Assembly (NCBI RefSeq): GCF_006345805.1
Contig: NC_043021.1
Coordinates: 27,094,001-27,158,000, forward strand
Reading direction: 5' to 3'
From: Octopus sinensis
Lineage: Eukaryota
Length of the DNA: 64,000 bases
How positions within the stretch are numbered: position 1 is the stretch's first letter; each line of letters opens with the position of its first letter. The position numbers were made by a program, and so were the translations under genes. Below the pieces are notes generated by a model. The model was given only the letters and a program-made list of their open reading frames with translations, had not been told where the DNA came from and did no database searches. Shown here piece after piece: positions 12,679 to 60,720 of this stretch.

Positions 12679-13405
12679 CTTTCGTTTCTTACGCGTCGCA
12701 CATGTGTACGTGGTGAAAATTGCTATTTCTTGGTGTTAATATTGTTGATAACTGCTGTTTCTAATAACTGTTGTTTCTTGTTAAATTGTTGAATTACTTA
12801 ACTGTTGGAGTTTTCATTTGAAAACACTAAGTGCTTGTAGTAGCACGCGTTGTTCATTCCCCCGTTGGGGGGAAGAATGTCGTCTAGCAAGGAGCCTACC
12901 GTTAGAACAGAAATGTTTGTTTCTCCTGTTGAGAGGAAGAATTACATGTTGTCTAGCGAAGAGCCAACTACGAACAATAATGGTTTCCCCCGTTGCAAAA
13001 AGGAATGACAAAATGTATGATTTATTTGGAGATGTGTCTGAAAGCTCGTCAAAACTTTCACTAGAAGAATTCCCGAGTTTGCCAAAAAACAAAAGTATTG
13101 TGTCCAAAAGAATAATTGATGCACCTAGCATCCAAACCGAACAACCAAAAAATGGAAAAAAAGTTTTGCGTTGGCAGCTGGGGGTGGAACCCGGCTGCTT
13201 TCGACGAATAAGTGTGATTTCATGAAATACAGTGAAATGATGCGAATAAATGACAACGTGGTAAAAATTCAACAACCAGAGAAATTACTACTAAAAGAAA
13301 AACAGTAAACAATAATTTTCAAAACTTACTGTTTGCAAAAAATAAAAATTGTCTGTCCTTGTTTGTCCCTTCTGTGTTTAGCCCCTTGTGGGTAGTAAAG
13401 AAATA
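12679..13405 (+). mobile_element. Non-autonomous non-LTR element (ORF1-like N-terminal remnant + tail A) inserted in a family A SINE
   Basis: Flanked by GGTATTTCGTCTGTCT (12663-12678) and GGTATTTCGTCCGTCT (13406-13421). The SINE head lies at 12619-12678 and the SINE body resumes at 13406-13520. The insert ends in TGTCTGTCCTTGTTTGTCCC...GTGGGTAGTAAAGAAATA. Confidence 0.7.
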
Positions 13406-14734: not shown

Positions 14735-14925
14735 TTTTTACTACCCACAAGGATTAAGTCGATTATATCGACCCCAGTGCGTAACTGGTACTTATTTAAT
14801 CGGCCCCGAAAGGATGAAAGGCAAAGTCGACTCCGGCGGAATTTGAACTCAGAACGTAGTGACAGACGAAATACGGCTACGCATTTAAGCCGGTGTGCTA
14901 GCGTTTCTGCCAGCTCGCCGCCTTA
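14735..14925 (-). mobile_element. SINE family A copy
   Basis: Homologous to 6551-6778 and flanked by a GTG(C/T)GTATGTGTTT direct repeat. Confidence 0.8.
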
Positions 14926-19030: not shown

Positions 19031-19784
19031 TTTTGTATCATAGGTGCAGGAGTGGCTGTGTGGTAAGTAGCTTGCTAACGCACATGCGCAGTTAGTCAGT
19101 TGCTTCCTGTTCAGCCAGAGTGGACGCGAGCCAACCAGCTCCGTCCAATTAAAGAAAAAAGACCAAAAACGGAAAGTTGTCGAGGTAAGTGATTTTGTTT
19201 ATTGTGAGTTGGGCATAATTTATTGCGTGCCAATTATTATTTCAGTAAGTTGTGTCCAACTCTGAGACAATTTCGCCTGCTCTCGGCGGCTGCCGTTTTT
19301 GTGTTCATTGAAAAAAAAGAAAAAACAGTGGAGGGGGTATCCTCGAAATTCAATACAGTTACTGTTAAAATTACCGTTGGCGGTAGCCAGTGCTGTGTTT
19401 GGGTTTGTTGAATTTATTCCCTTGTCAGAGTACTTCGCAAGAAAATTATAAAAATAAGCCACTATTGGATTACCTTTCGGACCCATTTTTGTGGAGGTTG
19501 TGTTGCAGTTGCGGCGTTCCAGGTTCAACCCAGGCCGGGAGTACCGCAAGGCCAGAATATTTTTGCTGTGTTTTTTCTGTTTATTAACTTTCTTTTGAAC
19601 TTCATTTAACCCCCCCTTTTGTTTTGTTTTTTTTTTTTCTTTATTGCGACTTTCCGTTGATTTCTCCCCTTCTGTTGTGCTTTCTCCTTTTTGTTTTTTC
19701 AAAAATCTATCAAATTTTATTTGGACTTTTGAACTTTTTTCTTCCTGCTTTTTGAGTTTAATTTGAATATATTAAAAAAAAAAC

Positions 19785-21023
19785 ATGGCAATGAAAAATA
19801 ACAAAATTTTGGAGTGGGAAATGATACCACCTGAAAAGTGGTTAAAAGACCGTGAAGATAGGACGGTGGTGTTGAGAACCTACTCCAAGGCACTCGACAC
19901 CATCGCCATATTCGAAAAGACGGCGATTGAAAAGGAGTTGGAAGAGTATTTGCCAACAATTAAATACATTTCCAGGGGTGTCAAATATGCAACGGTGTGG
20001 TTGCTATTTGACACCCCTGAAGAGGCTTGCAAATTTGCTAGCAAACCCCTGGAGGGTAAGGAAATCTTATTCCTGCCCACGTACAAAAAAAGAAATTGAT
20101 GAAAGCTTGGATTTGCGGGCTGCCACCCGACATAGAACCCGAGTGGATAGAGGAGACTATCCGCCGGGGTCTGGGTGACAGCGAAACTAAGCTCCTCAAT
20201 GTAAAAGTTCTTCCTGCGGCTGCTTGGGTTGTGTCAAAAGCAATTTTGACCCTGTGGACCCAATCAGCCAATCTGGTTCTTCCAGATTTTTTTTAAATGG
20301 CCGGGTGCAGGTACCCGGTGATGCTTGAGGGTCGCCCCCCTAAGTGTCATCGGTGCTTGGAGTCCGGCCACATAAAGAAGAACTGTCCTCGGGAACAAAA
20401 TAGGATCCCGGAACAGTTAAGTAAAACCCCTCTAGAAGAGGGAACGATAACGGCCGAGAAAGCAGAGGACTCCTCAAACAGAGGCCGAAAGAGGATGGTG
20501 AGCAACAATGGGTGCTCACCAAAGGATAATAGGGATGAGGAGAGGAAGGCGAATCTTCCAGCCACGGAGGAGACGCACCCTCCCTCAGTTGAAAAGGGGA
20601 AAAAAAAAGAAAAAGAGGAAGAAAAACGGGACATTACCGGCTGTCAGTGTAGCACCGGAATGTCCCGGAACTACGTCGGTTGGGGTTGTGCCACCGACAA
20701 GAGAAGGAATACCGTTGGCGGGAACTGTGCCGCCAACGAAAGAACTGAACGTATTGGTCCTCTTCTATAGAGGAGGAGAAATTGAAAAAGTGATGGAAGA
20801 GCACTACAAGGGAGCACCTTTAGCCTTCACACAGGACCCCGAATGGCCTCCGCAGGTAGCTGTGGAGGCCGTGGCGTTCGACGTGACGCTTGGGCTAAAG
20901 GAGCTCAATGAAGATTATAACTTGGTCCCGGGCGACGCGAACTCGGAACTTGATTACGTTCTGAGGGAGGCGTGGTTGATGGTGGAGGGCGCGGGCACAA
21001 GCTATTTCGAGGACGATATGTAA
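19785..21023 (+). pseudogene. ORF1/gag-like protein (~410 aa) with CCHC zinc knuckle, disrupted at three homopolymer sites
   Basis: Joins ORFs 19785-20099, 20096-20296, 20297-~20605 and ~20605-21023. Contains CHRCLESGHIKKNC (CX2CX4HX4C) after MLEGRPPK, an RRM-like N-terminal part and a Lys-rich linker. Defects lie at an A-run (~20085), a T/A-run stop (20294) and an A-run (~20600). Confidence 0.7.
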
Positions 21024-21040
21024 TTATTGAACTGTTAGTA

Positions 21041-21315
21041 TTAATAATGGACTGCTAAGTCCAAAAATTGAAAAATTGTAAGAGGTTTAATACCTCGTTT
21101 TGTATTTTTATTACTAATGGACTGCTAAGTCCAAAAATTGGAAAATTGAAAGAGGTTTAATACCTCGTTTTGTATTTTTATTAATAATGGACTGCTAAGT
21201 CCAAAAATTGGAAAAATTGTAAGAGGTTTAATACCTCGTTTTGTATTTTTATTAATAATGGACTGCTAAGTCCAAAAATTGGAAAAATTGTAAGAGGTTT
21301 AATACCTCGTTTTGT
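21041..21315 (+). repeat. ~70-bp tandem repeat x ~4 in the element's 3' UTR
   Basis: Units start at 21041, 21111, 21181 and 21252 (TTAATAATGGACTGCTAAGTCC...GAGGTTTAATACCTCGTTTTG). Confidence 0.92.
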
Positions 21316-21657
21316 GTTTATCTTTAAAAAGAACAATGTTTTAGAGAAGCGAAAGTCGGCGGGCGCTTTTTGTCTTCTCCCATCCTTATCATCTTTCTTT
21401 CATTATCATTCACCTCATTAATGTCCTCGTCCAGCCCGCAAAGCTAACTTAATCTGTGTACTGCCTTTATGGCAAATGTTTTGAAATAAAGTAGCTTGCT
21501 TACGAACCACATGGTTCTGGGTTCAGTCCCACTGCGTGGAACCTTGAGAAAGTGTCTTCTAATATAGCCTCGGGCTGACCAAAGCCTTGTGAGTGGATTT
21601 GGTAGACGGAAACTGAAAGAAGCCCGTCGTATATATGTATATATATATATATTATAT

Positions 21658-21705
<48 letters not shown>

Positions 21706-23039
21706 CGCGTGTGTGTGTGTGTGTGTGTGTATTTGTGTGTCTGTGTTTATCCAACATGTCTGTGTTTGACAACCGATGCTGGTGTGTTTACGTCCCTGTA
21801 ACTTAGCGGTTCGGCAAAAGAGACTGATAGAATAAGTACCAGGCTTACAAAGAATAAGACCAGGGGTCGAAAGGCGGTGCTCCAGTATGGCCACAGTCAA
21901 ATGACTGAAACAAGTAAAAGAGTAAAGAGTACCAATCTACTATTCTTGAATTGAAAACGCATATCCTTTCAAGTGTGATATTATGTAGCAGGCCAAGGAA
22001 GCTGCCACTTCATATCGATATTACTGTCTTCTACAAGTCTTCTGGAAGCTACCCATGGATAACTTTCTTTTCATATGCTGAGCGTTTCCCACCCAGATCC
22101 TCTTTCATATGTATGATTCGAGTTGTTTTGAGGTCATGAATGTATTTATGCATGAATGTATATATGTATTCGTGCATGTAGGGTGTATATGTATGTATGC
22201 ATGCATGTATGTATGTGTGTATGTATGTGTGCATGTATGTATGTATGTATGTATGTACGTACGTACGTATGCATGTACGTACGTATGCATGTATGCATGT
22301 ATGTACATATGCATGTATGCATGCATAGCTACACTTCCCAAATGAGAATAAGTGGTCTAAGATAGGAGTAGGAAAATAGGCCTGAGAACCACGGTGCAGA
22401 CGTGCAGAATCCAGGCGAATACAGAAAAAGCAAATATAAGAAAATACTGAAAATACTGCAGCAGTTACAGCGAGACCTGTGCTATTCTCAGGCATTAAAA
22501 AACGTATGAATTACTTCTCGTTTAAAGTTCTCTTTTTCTTGTATGCGTACGATGTCTGAATGTATGTCACAACACAAAACTTCTCGTTCATCTTTATGCT
22601 TTCACACTGTCGTCCTTTCGTGTAATTCACTTCTTTGCGTATCTGTATGTTTTGCTATATAATTATATCGGAAATTAAACATTCACGAAGTAAGAGAACA
22701 ATACATTTTTTCAATATTTTTTTTTATTACAAGTTCCCTGCAGCATTGCTAAAAGTAGGAAGTAATTTTCCTCTTAATCTTCACACCAGCTTTTTATTTC
22801 TGAAGACAATGGAAGTGATATCACAATTATGACTTTTCCATCTTGATCCTTTATAAATAATGTTTTAAAATGTAGGTCGACGGCACTCTCACAGTTTATG
22901 TGTGAAATATTCGCTTTTACACAACCGAAGCATGAATACGTTTTTTCGAAGAAAATCCTTTTCCTTAAAGTCAGCATTAATAAATTGTTTTGTTTCATGT
23001 ATGTATGTATGTATGTATGTATGTATGTATATAATATAT

Positions 23040-59099: not shown

Positions 59100-60165
59100 A
59101 GTGGTTTAGATGTCACGGTTTGGTGAGCGCGCCAACTAAATTCTGACTGCGTTTGTCTCTGGTATTCACATCTTCCACAATGGTACAAATTTTTCTGGCT
59201 AGGCAGTATGGGATATTGAGTTTTGTATCTGTTGGATGGCACGATTTAAAGTTCAGGGTTTTATGCGTGTCTGTATCTTTTTAATATATATCAGTGGTAT
59301 TACTTTTAATTACCATTATGTCTAGAAATGGTAATTTGGTACTACTCATCTTTGTAAATTGGAGAGTTGGGTGTAGATTGTTCAGGAAGCTATTTTGTCC
59401 AGATTATGAAGCAATCGTCATGGTATCACTTCCATGATTATCCAATATACCTTCTAAATTCAGTGCATAGTTTTCCTCTGTTTTTTGATAGAATTGTTTT
59501 TCTAAGTATCCCATTACGGAGTTCGCATAAACGGGAGAACATTTCATTCCCATTGCTGAGCTTCTAACTTGGATGTAATTCTTCCCATTAAAAAAGAATG
59601 TGGTATTTTGAAAAATAAGTTTGACTGTGTCTAATATAAATGAAGCGGTGAATCTACTGGGAATCACTTCTCGATGCTTTTCTGCCAGGTATTTAATCGC
59701 CTTTATTCCTAAATCATGTGAAATATTGATGTAAAAGCTTACTACATCAAACTAATTAAAATTGAATTCGATTCCGTTGTTTTGGGAAGGTGAGACAAGA
59801 AGTCAATGAAACTAGGCATTTGGGTACATAATAGTTTCAAAATAATGTCAATAAAATTACTTAGACGGTGGGTAGAGCATGATGGATCAACTATAATAGG
59901 TCTAAGTTTTAGGTCTTTCGGGTGTAGTAATTTTATGTTTTTTCTTCACTCTTGTCTCGGTCATTTGACTGTGGCGATGCTGGAGCACCGCCTTTAGTCG
60001 AGCAAATCGACCCCAGGACTTATTCTTTGTAAGCCTAGTACTTATTCTATCGGTTCTCTTTTGCCGAAGCGCTACGTTACGGGGACGTATACAATCCACC
60101 ATCGGTTGTCAAACGATGTTAGGGGAGGGGGCAAACACAGACACACAAACATATACACACACATA

Positions 60166-60220
<55 letters not shown>

Positions 60221-60720
60221 TATACGACTGGCTTGTTTGTTTCCGTCAACCAAATACACTCACAAGGCTTTGGTCGGCTCGAGGCTATTGTAGAAGACAC
60301 TTGCCCAAGGTGCTATGCAGTGGGAATGAACCCGGAACCATGTGGTTGGTAAGCAAGCTACTTACCACACAGCCACTCCTGCACCTTGTTTTTTTTTTTC
60401 CTTACAGCTTGTTGAATTCCTTTTCACTTGTGTATGTTTGGTAAGCCATAGAAGTTGCTCGACTTTGGTTCGAACTTTATGATGTAGTCACTTTCATTAT
60501 GGTAATGGAGTTGTAGCGTTTTGAAACCAGGTTATTGACGTTCTTCATGATGTGCTGGTGTATATTTGAAGGTATTTCCCTGTAGAATGTTGTGTCCTTC
60601 AATTGGTCCTGAATTAAATCCCTGTAGTATTCGGCATCCATTATAACAATTGCGTCCCCTTTATCTGCTTGTTTAATGATCATCGTGTTATCGTTTTGTA
60701 GGCGTTTAAGTGTAGAACAC
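59100..60720 (-). mobile_element. Second, older Penelope-like RT fragment, interrupted by a SINE
   Basis: IIKQADKGDAIVIMD, NFYGLP, LRPII, SAMGMKCSPVYAN, LPFLDIMV and FKSCHP on the minus strand. Confidence 0.8.
59945..60385 (-). mobile_element. Intact SINE family B (CORE-like)
   Basis: GGTGCAGGAGTGGCTGTGTGGTAAGTAGCTTGCTTACCAACCACATGGTTCCGGGTTC head, CACCTTGGGCAAGTG CORE-like block, internal (TA)n and 3' half. Confidence 0.85.

Follow-up and report, generated by a model that had tools for sequence, protein, structure and literature searches.

How does a retroelement that encodes neither a reverse transcriptase (RT) nor an endonuclease (EN) come to sit at a defined position in the head of a short interspersed element (SINE)? 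The question is raised by a 64,000-nt stretch of the Octopus sinensis genome (NC_043021.1, 27,094,001 to 27,158,000), which we call the window and whose positions serve as coordinates throughout. On its plus strand, at 19075-21488, sequence reading and a genome search delimit an element of 2,414 bp, running from CTAACGCACATGCGC to TTTTGAAATA, which splits a SINE head and carries a single open reading frame (ORF) related to the first ORF (ORF1) of long interspersed elements (LINEs). The reading that we favor, with good though not complete confidence, is that the insert is a defective representative of a multicopy, ORF1-only element of the kind without long terminal repeats (non-LTR), that it is tied to one site in SINE heads, and that it was likely copied in trans by the EN and RT of an L1-like LINE using the same site.

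An ORF1-only element interrupts a SINE

The boundaries of the insertion can be read from the two halves of the host SINE. Its 5' part (SINE positions 1-32; window 19043-19074, plus strand, by sequence reading) contains an A-box-like motif, and the head of an intact SINE (positions 1-37) matches window 19043-19079 at 97% identity (BLAST). The SINE resumes at 21489, where its positions 23-129 match window 21489-21595 at 89% (BLAST), and the remainder, comprising a B-box-like motif, the body, and a (TA)n(TG)n microsatellite, extends over 21499-21900 on the plus strand (3' end approximate). The element thus lies between two motifs that we judged by eye and take to match the usual A- and B-box consensus sequences. 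An uninterrupted copy of the same SINE on the minus strand (59945-60385; BLAST and sequence reading) provides the empty site, which reads GTGGTAAGTAGCTTGCTTACCAACC without interruption, and across the 2.72-Gb genome there are 63,778 exact uninterrupted sites, compared to none for a reversed control pattern. An initial annotation of the window had recognized both the 2.4-kb insert and this empty site, and both were borne out. It had also called the SINE head tRNA derived, which was not confirmed: ARAGORN called no tRNA genes in the window, and Rfam returned no tRNA match for the head at E ≤ 1, only microsatellite-driven microRNA noise.

The length of the target site duplication required a comparison across copies. 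The direct repeat flanking the window copy is AAGTAGCTTGCT, 12 bp, as the initial annotation had it, but only the 10 bp of AAGTAGCTTG derive from the target; its upstream copy lies at 19065-19074 (10-bp extent from copy comparison) and its downstream copy at 21489-21498, both on the plus strand and both found by repeat search. The upstream junction always reads GCTTG-CTAAC, likewise in the two-ORF LINE copies L087 and L088 (loci are given by L numbers). CTAAC was present in 19 of the 19 copies with a canonical 5' end, 9 of which have a downstream variant other than CTAA. Because the upstream CTAAC is invariant regardless of the downstream SINE variant, the duplication of the target covers 10 bp and CTAAC(C) comes with the element; a 12- or 15-bp duplication for the family of the window element was rejected for the same reason. 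The two A's at the 3' boundary, which had been thought possibly to belong to a terminal AATAAA, are target and not element, and relatives in a second SINE family end in GAAATA followed by GG. No LTRs or terminal inverted repeats were detected in a repeat search of 19040-21530, which returned only the flanking repeat, a 71-bp array, and low-complexity pairs. With its target site duplication, its empty site, and the fixed 3' end described below, the window element is a non-LTR retroelement.

Copies occupy one SINE site in one orientation

The window element is one of many. A genome search returned at least 95 matches (39 of 3,151 first-look candidates were scored); at least 18 places cover nearly the entire query at 95-97% identity, and other full-length copies are 95-97% identical over query positions 1-2099. 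The 3'-terminal 22-mer of the family has 157 exact sites in the genome, and 147 of these continue into AAGTAGC, the SINE site. All 30 of the best-matching loci are inserted at the same SINE position in the same orientation, with SINE positions 23-129 directly 3'. The SINE head stands directly 5' in 27 of them, and the other three (L017, L027, and L028) are in tandem behind a related element. Over all families, exact element/SINE 3' junctions numbered 597, compared to 0 in the reversed control. The 3' end is fixed and 5' truncation is variable, both in family copies (L050 and L083) and in relatives (L037, L038, L035, and L041). Two outcomes that the initial annotation had named as fatal to its proposal, a single-copy deletion product and a lack of target preference, are both contradicted by these counts. 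Its suggestion that the element targets tRNA-like sequences stands insofar as the site in the SINE head is fixed, but what we see is one site of one SINE family, with relatives at one site in a second SINE; no insertion into a true tRNA gene was seen, although no test was aimed at tRNA-gene targeting.

To describe what occupies the site, we drew two unbiased samples. The first consisted of the first 20 junction sites in genome order, minus L029. Five of these derive from two-ORF LINEs, one of 4.5 kb with a deletion of ∼930 bp in ORF2 (L033) and four that are 5' truncated (L034, L035, L038, and L041). The other 15 are ORF1-only elements: two are members of the window element's family (L049, full length and in tandem, and L050, truncated), one is a chimera that shares only its last ∼775 bp with that family (L039), and 12 represent other ORF1-only families, with 65-80% identity and, where both ends were seen, lengths of 1.6-2.2 kb. 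The SINE head was directly at the 5' boundary in 12/20 and at the outer element of a tandem in 1/20. The second sample, 20 sites carrying the family 3' 22-mer, comprised six full-length family copies behind a SINE head, two copies in tandem behind a related element, eight chimeras of the L039 type, all behind a head, and one 5' variant behind a head, together with a variant that shows no head (L075), a truncated copy with no head next to it (L083), and an unrelated element (L074). Head-to-tail tandems of two different elements were found at L017, L027, L028, L049, L063, L067, and L084, with a single AAGTAGCTT(T)G between the partners. The ORF1-only lineage is, to judge by these sequences, old and diversified into several families.

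The chimeras form an abundant family of their own (L039, L066, L069-L071, L073, L077, L079, and L080), 95-98% identical to the window family over the last ∼775 bp but only ∼70% identical in the N-terminal half of the ORF and with a different 5' end, TTCTTACCAGACAGACGTG. In a further subfamily (L019-L025 and L082) this same 5' end is joined to window-family sequence from query position 353. Such module exchange between families suggests template switching between co-packaged RNAs. Pieces of the window family were also present in contigs of four sequencing runs (the kind of run is our guess), and none of the runs listed as containing the sequence is recorded as RNA. In runs under five organism labels, 21-63% of the 31-mers sampled from the stretch are present, so that near-identical copies are present beyond one label.

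The single ORF encodes an ORF1p-like protein

The ORF1-like frame lies at 19785-21023 (plus strand). It is broken in the window copy and is 97.1-97.7% identical to four intact copies; the intact protein has 414 aa (e.g., L013:2201-3442). Uninterrupted frames of 412-414 aa were found in 5 of the 30 best loci (L013, L014, L024, L026, and L020), and 1 of the 8 L039-type copies in the second sample keeps a frame of 400 aa. Relative to the four intact copies, the window ORF has three defects on the plus strand: an A run 1 bp short (20085-20091), an in-frame TAA two substitutions away from the intact copies (20294-20296), and a G run 1 bp long (20593-20596). All three lie at or beside homopolymer runs, as the initial annotation had pointed out in proposing that the ORF may be intact. 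The two run-length defects could indeed be assembly errors, but this is unlikely for the TAA, and because it consists of two substitutions and not a change in run length, the window copy is probably truly broken.

The frame had been described as a single CCHC ORF of ∼410 aa without RT or EN, and the domain searches agree: at E ≤ 10 Pfam gave zf-CCHC alone, with no RT or EN domain in the element and no match to Transposase_22 (Type II ORF1p) in the ORF. An ORF2 remnant was not found either when ORF2 of the same-site LINE was compared with the element by tblastn (best E of 0.85). The zinc knuckle, CHRCLESGHIKKNC, spans residues 187-202 of the intact protein (20342-20389, plus strand) and matches PF00098 with an E value of 0.0019 for the window piece and of 0.0078 for the intact ORF, neither of which reaches the curated Pfam cut-off. 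The homologous knuckle in the LINE ORF1 passes that cut-off (E = 1.6e-5), and a protein alignment of ORF1-only families and LINE ORF1s shows almost no variation in the C, G, H, and C columns.

Ahead of the knuckle, AlphaFold2 and Foldseek indicate two tandem domains resembling the RNA recognition motif (RRM), at residues ∼16-102 and 102-184 of the intact protein (19830-20335, plus strand, approximate given the frameshift at 20085). In the model, built from an 11-row alignment, the predicted local distance difference test score (pLDDT) is 66-88 at residues 20-190 and <50 for the rest. The top Foldseek matches are tandem-RRM proteins (hnRNP A1 UP1, U2AF65, HuD/HuR, and SFPQ/NONO; E values of 3e-5 to 2e-4), and VIA-align superposed residues 16-102 on RRMs with a Z score of 8.8 and a root mean square deviation (rmsd) of 2.4 over 77-80 residues and residues 102-184 with Z scores of 7.2-7.7 and rmsd of 2.0-2.3. 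The protein is therefore modeled with an RRM-RRM-CCHC layout, that of a Type I ORF1p, which in the classes of Khazina and Weichenrieder has at least one RRM and a CCHC zinc knuckle, as summarized by Ivancevic (2016; PMC5203782).

Sequence comparisons likewise point to LINE ORF1. The ORF is 28% identical to ORF1 of L033 over residues 14-207 (BLASTP E = 8e-23), gives E values of 1e-17 to 1e-22 against three LINE ORF1s, and is 27-35% identical to ORF1 of four other two-ORF families. In line with what had been proposed, the element keeps an RNA-binding protein of the ORF1p kind. In a MAFFT alignment its identity to other ORF1-only families is 44-69%, compared to 21-22% to LINE ORF1s. The ORF1-only families share a conserved basic linker and a conserved C-terminal region with a PEWPPQ-like motif. 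MAFFT sets the C-terminal half against the C-terminal region of LINE ORF1, a placement that is not evidence of homology, and BLAST found no match between this half and LINE ORF1 or ORF2; residues 305-414 had no usable ESM Atlas match, and a PDB sequence search with the ORF gave nothing meaningful.

The ratio of nonsynonymous to synonymous substitution (dN/dS), a check that the initial annotation had recommended, was 0.17-0.27 between ORF1-only families and 0.30 within the family (Nei-Gojobori, NG86), and these values are rough, since between-family dS exceeds 1 and is saturated and local alignment favors conserved stretches. Protein homologue searches with the ORF and with the protein alignment matched only two octopus proteins, the "uncharacterized protein" gene model LOC115225585 (63% identity over 67% of the ORF) and a "K02A2.6-like" integrase-domain gene model (85% identity over 11% of the ORF). 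In each case a repeat copy has likely been annotated as a gene.

The window element encodes no RT or EN and so is not an autonomous LINE. It is not a SINE either, being one of a set of elements of 2.2-2.4 kb with a 414-aa ORF, and the box-like motifs beside it belong to the interrupted host SINE. In being a homologue of LINE ORF1 present in many copies of one structure, it is HAL1-like; it is not HAL1 proper, which has a Type II ORF1p and a poly(A) tail.

Two-ORF LINEs share the site and a 3'-terminal module

Complete two-ORF elements occur at the same site. In L063 the SINE head leads into CTAACCTCACTG..., an ORF1 of 488 open codons, and an open ORF2 of 1,137 aa; the LINE ends ...GGCAAATTATATGAAATA, and then come a single AAGTAGCTTG and, in tandem, the 5' end of the window element's family. 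ORF2 of the same-site LINE (L033 and L041) contains Exo_endo_phos (PF03372, E = 1.8e-12), RVT_1 (PF00078, E = 1.9e-11), and zf-RVT (PF13966, E = 1.5e-9), and its best match among solved structures is human L1 ORF2p (E = 2.7e-65, residues 6-867), with R2 proteins at ∼1e-19. By its predicted apurinic/apyrimidinic-type endonuclease (APE) and RT and its closeness to L1 ORF2p, the two-ORF partner can be assigned to the L1 superfamily, which supports the L1 affiliation put forward earlier. Many copies of this LINE are 92-98% identical, several with long open frames. Sequence-specific insertion, typical of many Tx1 elements, is seen here, although it does not define the Tx1 clade. A 2026 repeat annotation of O. 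vulgaris places L1-Tx1 families among the recently active LINEs (PMC13282606).

A sister two-ORF LINE family (L064, G000:C17:42783800-42790600; L065, G000:C4:139966400-139973000) has 66% ORF2 identity and open frames of 1,134-1,181 aa, lies outside the SINE, and ends ...ATAATAAAGAAA(T/A)A. L065 is flanked by a direct repeat of ∼20 bp, tttcatcgc.acctggtg.tt.

What the ORF1-only element and the same-site LINE have in common is the 5' CTAAC(C), the site with its duplication, and a terminal module consisting of a 4-bp stem with a 5-nt loop, ∼14 nt, and GAAATA. In the window this module is the hairpin UGCC-UUUAU-GGCA (21462-21474, plus strand, from a covariation alignment), 14 nt before the GAAATA terminus (21483-21488, plus strand), which has no poly(A) and recurs in the same-site two-ORF LINEs and in the second SINE family; the 3' end of the element reads ...TGGCAAATGTTTTGAAATA. 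When the terminal 45 nt of 19 elements are aligned, 93.4% of stem cells are paired, compared to at most 57.9% in slid controls, 3 of the 4 pairs show two-sided changes (e.g., CG to UA and UA to CG), and none of 500 shuffles reaches the covariation score; several of the 19 rows come from the same families, so that independent changes are fewer than the cell count. The stem is present in the minimum free energy fold of three representatives (energy z score of -1.27 for the window element). BLASTN found no nucleotide similarity between element and LINE at E ≤ 1e-3. A search for a two-ORF parent with the same ends had also been recommended earlier; two-ORF LINEs at the site share the terminal module, but none of those sampled is a close sibling.

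Alternative origins of the copies

A shared position could also arise if SINE and insert formed one composite, a single old insertion amplified together with its SINE flanks, and it is true that every copy has the same flanks and orientation and that the upstream junction is always the same. The flanks themselves make this very improbable. When we counted SINE variants by hand in the first 100 rows of the occupied-site and empty-site listings, the four bases after GCTTG were CTAA in 31, CTTA in 44, TTTA in 15, and other in 10 of the occupied sites, compared to 47, 28, 19, and 6, respectively, of the empty sites, so that the downstream SINEs are of different subfamilies in roughly the proportions of empty SINEs. 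The downstream SINE bodies of the 30 best loci also fall in different subfamilies, and one insert subfamily is found in different SINE subfamilies (L002, L003, and L005 versus L004 and L030). In pairwise comparisons of 19 full-length copies, identity averages 96.7% for the element, compared to 92.8% for the downstream and 91.4% for the upstream SINE; flanks are about twice as divergent as inserts. The 5'-truncated relatives L037 (151 bp), L038 (331 bp), L035 (∼490 bp), and L041 (∼1.5 kb) keep a complete SINE head directly upstream, whereas truncation of a composite would remove it, and unrelated-looking families as well as the two-ORF LINE use the same site. Because the host SINEs are of mixed subfamilies, are more diverged than the inserts, and keep their heads before truncated relatives, the copies are independent, site-specific insertions and not a co-amplified composite.

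Given that an internally deleted LINE does exist at the site (L033, with ∼930 bp of ORF2 gone), the copies might instead be dead-on-arrival deletion products of a two-ORF LINE, each formed during insertion or later, with no propagation of an ORF1-only form. We consider this quite unlikely: the same structure and the same ends recur in at least 157 copies, no ORF2 remnant is present, ORF1 of six two-ORF loci (L033, L063, L064, L065, L090, and L091) is only 27-35% identical, compared to 44-69% identity among ORF1-only families, the upstream stretches of L089 and L092 gave no match at E ≤ 1e-3, and there are several diverged ORF1-only families of 1.6-2.2 kb with the same architecture and dN/dS well under 1. 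With ORF1 so distant, no ORF2 remnant, and no BLAST-level nucleotide similarity, the window element is evidently not a recent deletion product of any sampled two-ORF LINE. The same distance, with nucleotide similarity confined to the last ∼35 nt, would also fit mobilization by an enzyme source other than the sampled same-site LINEs, such as an extinct parent or another LINE clade, and few two-ORF families were sampled. Element and LINE nevertheless agree in nick site, orientation, 10-bp duplication, CTAAC(C) start, and hairpin/GAAATA end, both are young (96.7% identity for the element versus 92-98% for the LINE), and they stand in tandem across one target copy, and for these reasons we think another source unlikely, if less so than the two preceding alternatives. 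Hardly credible at all is a domesticated host family of RNA-binding genes, which the annotation of one related copy as "uncharacterized protein LOC115225585" and the appearance of ZCCHC3-like proteins among the nearest named ESM Atlas clusters (score of 0.91, a lead only) might bring to mind; the copies lie in SINE heads with target duplications, are mostly broken and in some cases 5' truncated, have LINE-like ends, and form tandems with LINEs.

A proposed route of mobilization in trans

If the same-site LINE mobilizes the ORF1-only element, its APE would nick the bottom strand of the SINE at GGT|AAGTAGC, and its RT would recognize the hairpin/GAAATA module of the ORF1-only RNA and prime there (target-primed reverse transcription). 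A top-strand cut 10 bp downstream would produce the AAGTAGCTTG duplication. The constant CTAAC would act as target-like sequence in the RNA, allowing the cDNA end to pair with the upstream SINE half and close the 5' junction, and regenerated target copies would permit a second insertion and hence tandems. The element's own ORF1p would coat its own RNA in cis; such a need for ORF1p in cis would explain purifying selection on the ORF, and the conserved ORF suggests that each RNA does need its own ORF1p in this way.

Several observations weigh against mobilization by the same-site LINE or limit how far the proposal reaches. Mobilization in trans is likely, whereas transcription of the element and the choice of donor LINE family are presumed. 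The similarity between element and LINE amounts to ∼35 terminal nucleotides and the N-terminal half of ORF1 at 27-35% identity, and the shared hairpin has only four pairs and an unremarkable folding energy (z scores of -0.6 to -2.5). In the first sample, 7 of the 20 sites (L032, L034, L036, L040, L045, L048, and L050) have no SINE head within 7 kb upstream; of these, L050 is a 5'-truncated copy of the window family, and L083 in the second sample is similar. Most copies are broken, and none of the 10 family copies among the 22-mer sites of the second sample keeps the full ORF. The saturated dS noted above leaves the evidence for selection rough, and dN/dS rises to 0.68 for a C-terminal fragment compared with L040. 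The C-terminal half of the protein (residues 204-414) has a pLDDT of <50 and no confident model or match.

A broader picture can be sketched, as a speculation that we hold to be possible but rather doubtful. An old, self-perpetuating ORF1-only lineage would, together with L1/Tx1-like LINEs and a self-targeting SINE, have specialized on "safe harbor" sites in SINE promoter heads. Its several module-exchanging families would outnumber their autonomous partners in a division of labor like that of HeT-A and TART but outside telomeres, and an RRM-RRM-CCHC protein with a private C-terminal domain would be required for capturing foreign ORF2p or for guiding it to the site.

Relation to known site-specific and ORF1-only elements

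LINE derivatives with ORF1 alone are known chiefly in mammals (HAL1) and at Drosophila telomeres (HeT-A), and why such elements retain ORF1 and how they obtain ORF2p are unsettled questions in the field. HAL1 has an ORF1p of the mammalian Type II (coiled coil, RRM, and C-terminal domain) and inserts without a fixed target. In contrast, the octopus ORF1p is Type I-like, RRM-RRM-CCHC with an extra conserved C-terminal region, and the octopus elements use one site in one SINE, end in a hairpin and GAAATA instead of poly(A), and fall into several diverged families, for none of which a close two-ORF sibling was sampled. HAL1 is described by Kojima (2018; PMC5753468) as an ORF1p-only derivative of L1 that arose several times. 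The likeness is that both are ORF1p-only, nonautonomous derivatives of the L1 group that need ORF2p in trans.

Target specificity is familiar from the Tx1 clade, with Tx1L inserting in Tx1D, Keno in U2 snRNA genes, and Tx1-Mar and SINEU-3 in Mariner-N4_AMi, and nonautonomous partners of Tx1-clade LINEs share their target preference (Kojima 2015; PMC4494074). A Type I-like ORF1p is consistent with this clade according to Ivancevic (2016; PMC5203782). The octopus system resembles these APE-type, L1-group LINEs, which use one sequence, often inside a transposon or a small-RNA gene. It differs in that the target is the head of a SINE with >60,000 copies and that the dominant nonautonomous partners are protein-coding ORF1-only elements and not only SINEs.

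HeT-A, at the telomeres of Drosophila, is Gag-only and lacks RT, and it stands beside the RT-bearing TART and TAHRE. Like HeT-A, the octopus elements are restricted to ORF1/Gag, use one kind of site, outnumber the RT-bearing relatives there, and form head-to-tail arrays. HeT-A, however, is a Jockey-clade element that is added to chromosome ends, with no internal nick site, and maintains telomeres, whereas no host function is indicated for the octopus element. Stringent LINE/SINE pairs such as UnaL2 and UnaSINE1 of eel share a 3' stem-loop, and the octopus partners likewise have a short 3' stem-loop and terminal repeat in common and no poly(A); here the partner is a 2-kb coding element, and recognition of the hairpin is our inference.

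The separate ingredients, HAL1-like ORF1-only structure and Tx1-like targeting, are thus already known. Their combination appears to be new, namely, a diversified, protein-coding ORF1-only lineage with strict SINE-head specificity, no poly(A), and a Type I ORF1p, and a search of full-text literature for octopus elements (without Repbase Reports and most subscription journals) found no paper on an octopus LINE that targets SINE heads or on an octopus ORF1-only element. With its identifiable two-ORF partners, defined target, short 3' module, and defined 5' terminus, the lineage offers a clean natural system in which to address the role of ORF1p in cis, the recognition of RNA by ORF2p, and the reading of a 10- to 20-bp site by an APE-type endonuclease. 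Insertion separates the A-box-like from the B-box-like motif in a SINE with >60,000 copies and would inactivate SINE copies while sparing genes. For annotation, it means that gene models such as LOC115225585 are copies of this ORF1-only element group.

Untranslated regions of the element

The 5' untranslated region (UTR) of the window element (19075-19784, plus strand) is ∼710 nt long, begins with CTAAC and the CGCACATGCGC motif, and has T-rich runs at 19560-19780, in agreement with the long, U-rich 5' UTR described earlier. Four families begin, after the target-like bases, with a near-palindromic (A/G)CGC(A)CATGCG (window 19079-19090; L042; L044; window 12696-12706), which resembles the NRF-1 site YGCGCAYGCGCR. 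This motif could be part of an internal RNA polymerase II promoter; in the family of the window element it may alternatively be left over from the SINE's CCACATGG. Transcription by RNA polymerase III from the split SINE promoter was judged an unlikely source of full-length RNA, as the element has T4+ runs near its start. On the minus strand, the T-rich region contains a 183-codon open frame (19220-19771) that is lysine rich and of low complexity and is most likely a by-product of base composition. The 3' UTR carries a 71-bp tandem repeat (21039-21319, plus strand; Tandem Repeats Finder score of 527, 96% matches) in 4 units, compared to 2 units in most other copies.

Relatives in a second SINE family

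A relative of ∼730 bp (12679-13405, plus strand) occupies the analogous place between the A- and B-box-like motifs of a second SINE family and carries CGCACATG near its 5' end, both of which had been noticed in the initial annotation. At the 5' end it reads ...CTTACGCGTCGCACATGTG; a partial ORF lies at 12785-13225, and the relative ends in CCCCTTGTGGGTAGTAAAGAAATA, followed by the SINE sequence GGTATTTCGTC. The second SINE family is also represented at 14735-14925 (minus strand); it shares its 3' tail with the 12679 insert, and this tail is similar to that of the same-site LINE. Genome-wide there are 8,368 instances of the junction AAAGAAATA|GGTATTTCGTCNGTC, often at a spacing of ∼184 bp. At L086 (G000:C1:42137900-42139000) a full SINE is followed by five headless units, 171 or 184 bp long, which all begin at the target site and alternate in a higher-order pattern. 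It looks as if the second SINE inserts into its own head, with arrays that then expanded by recombination.

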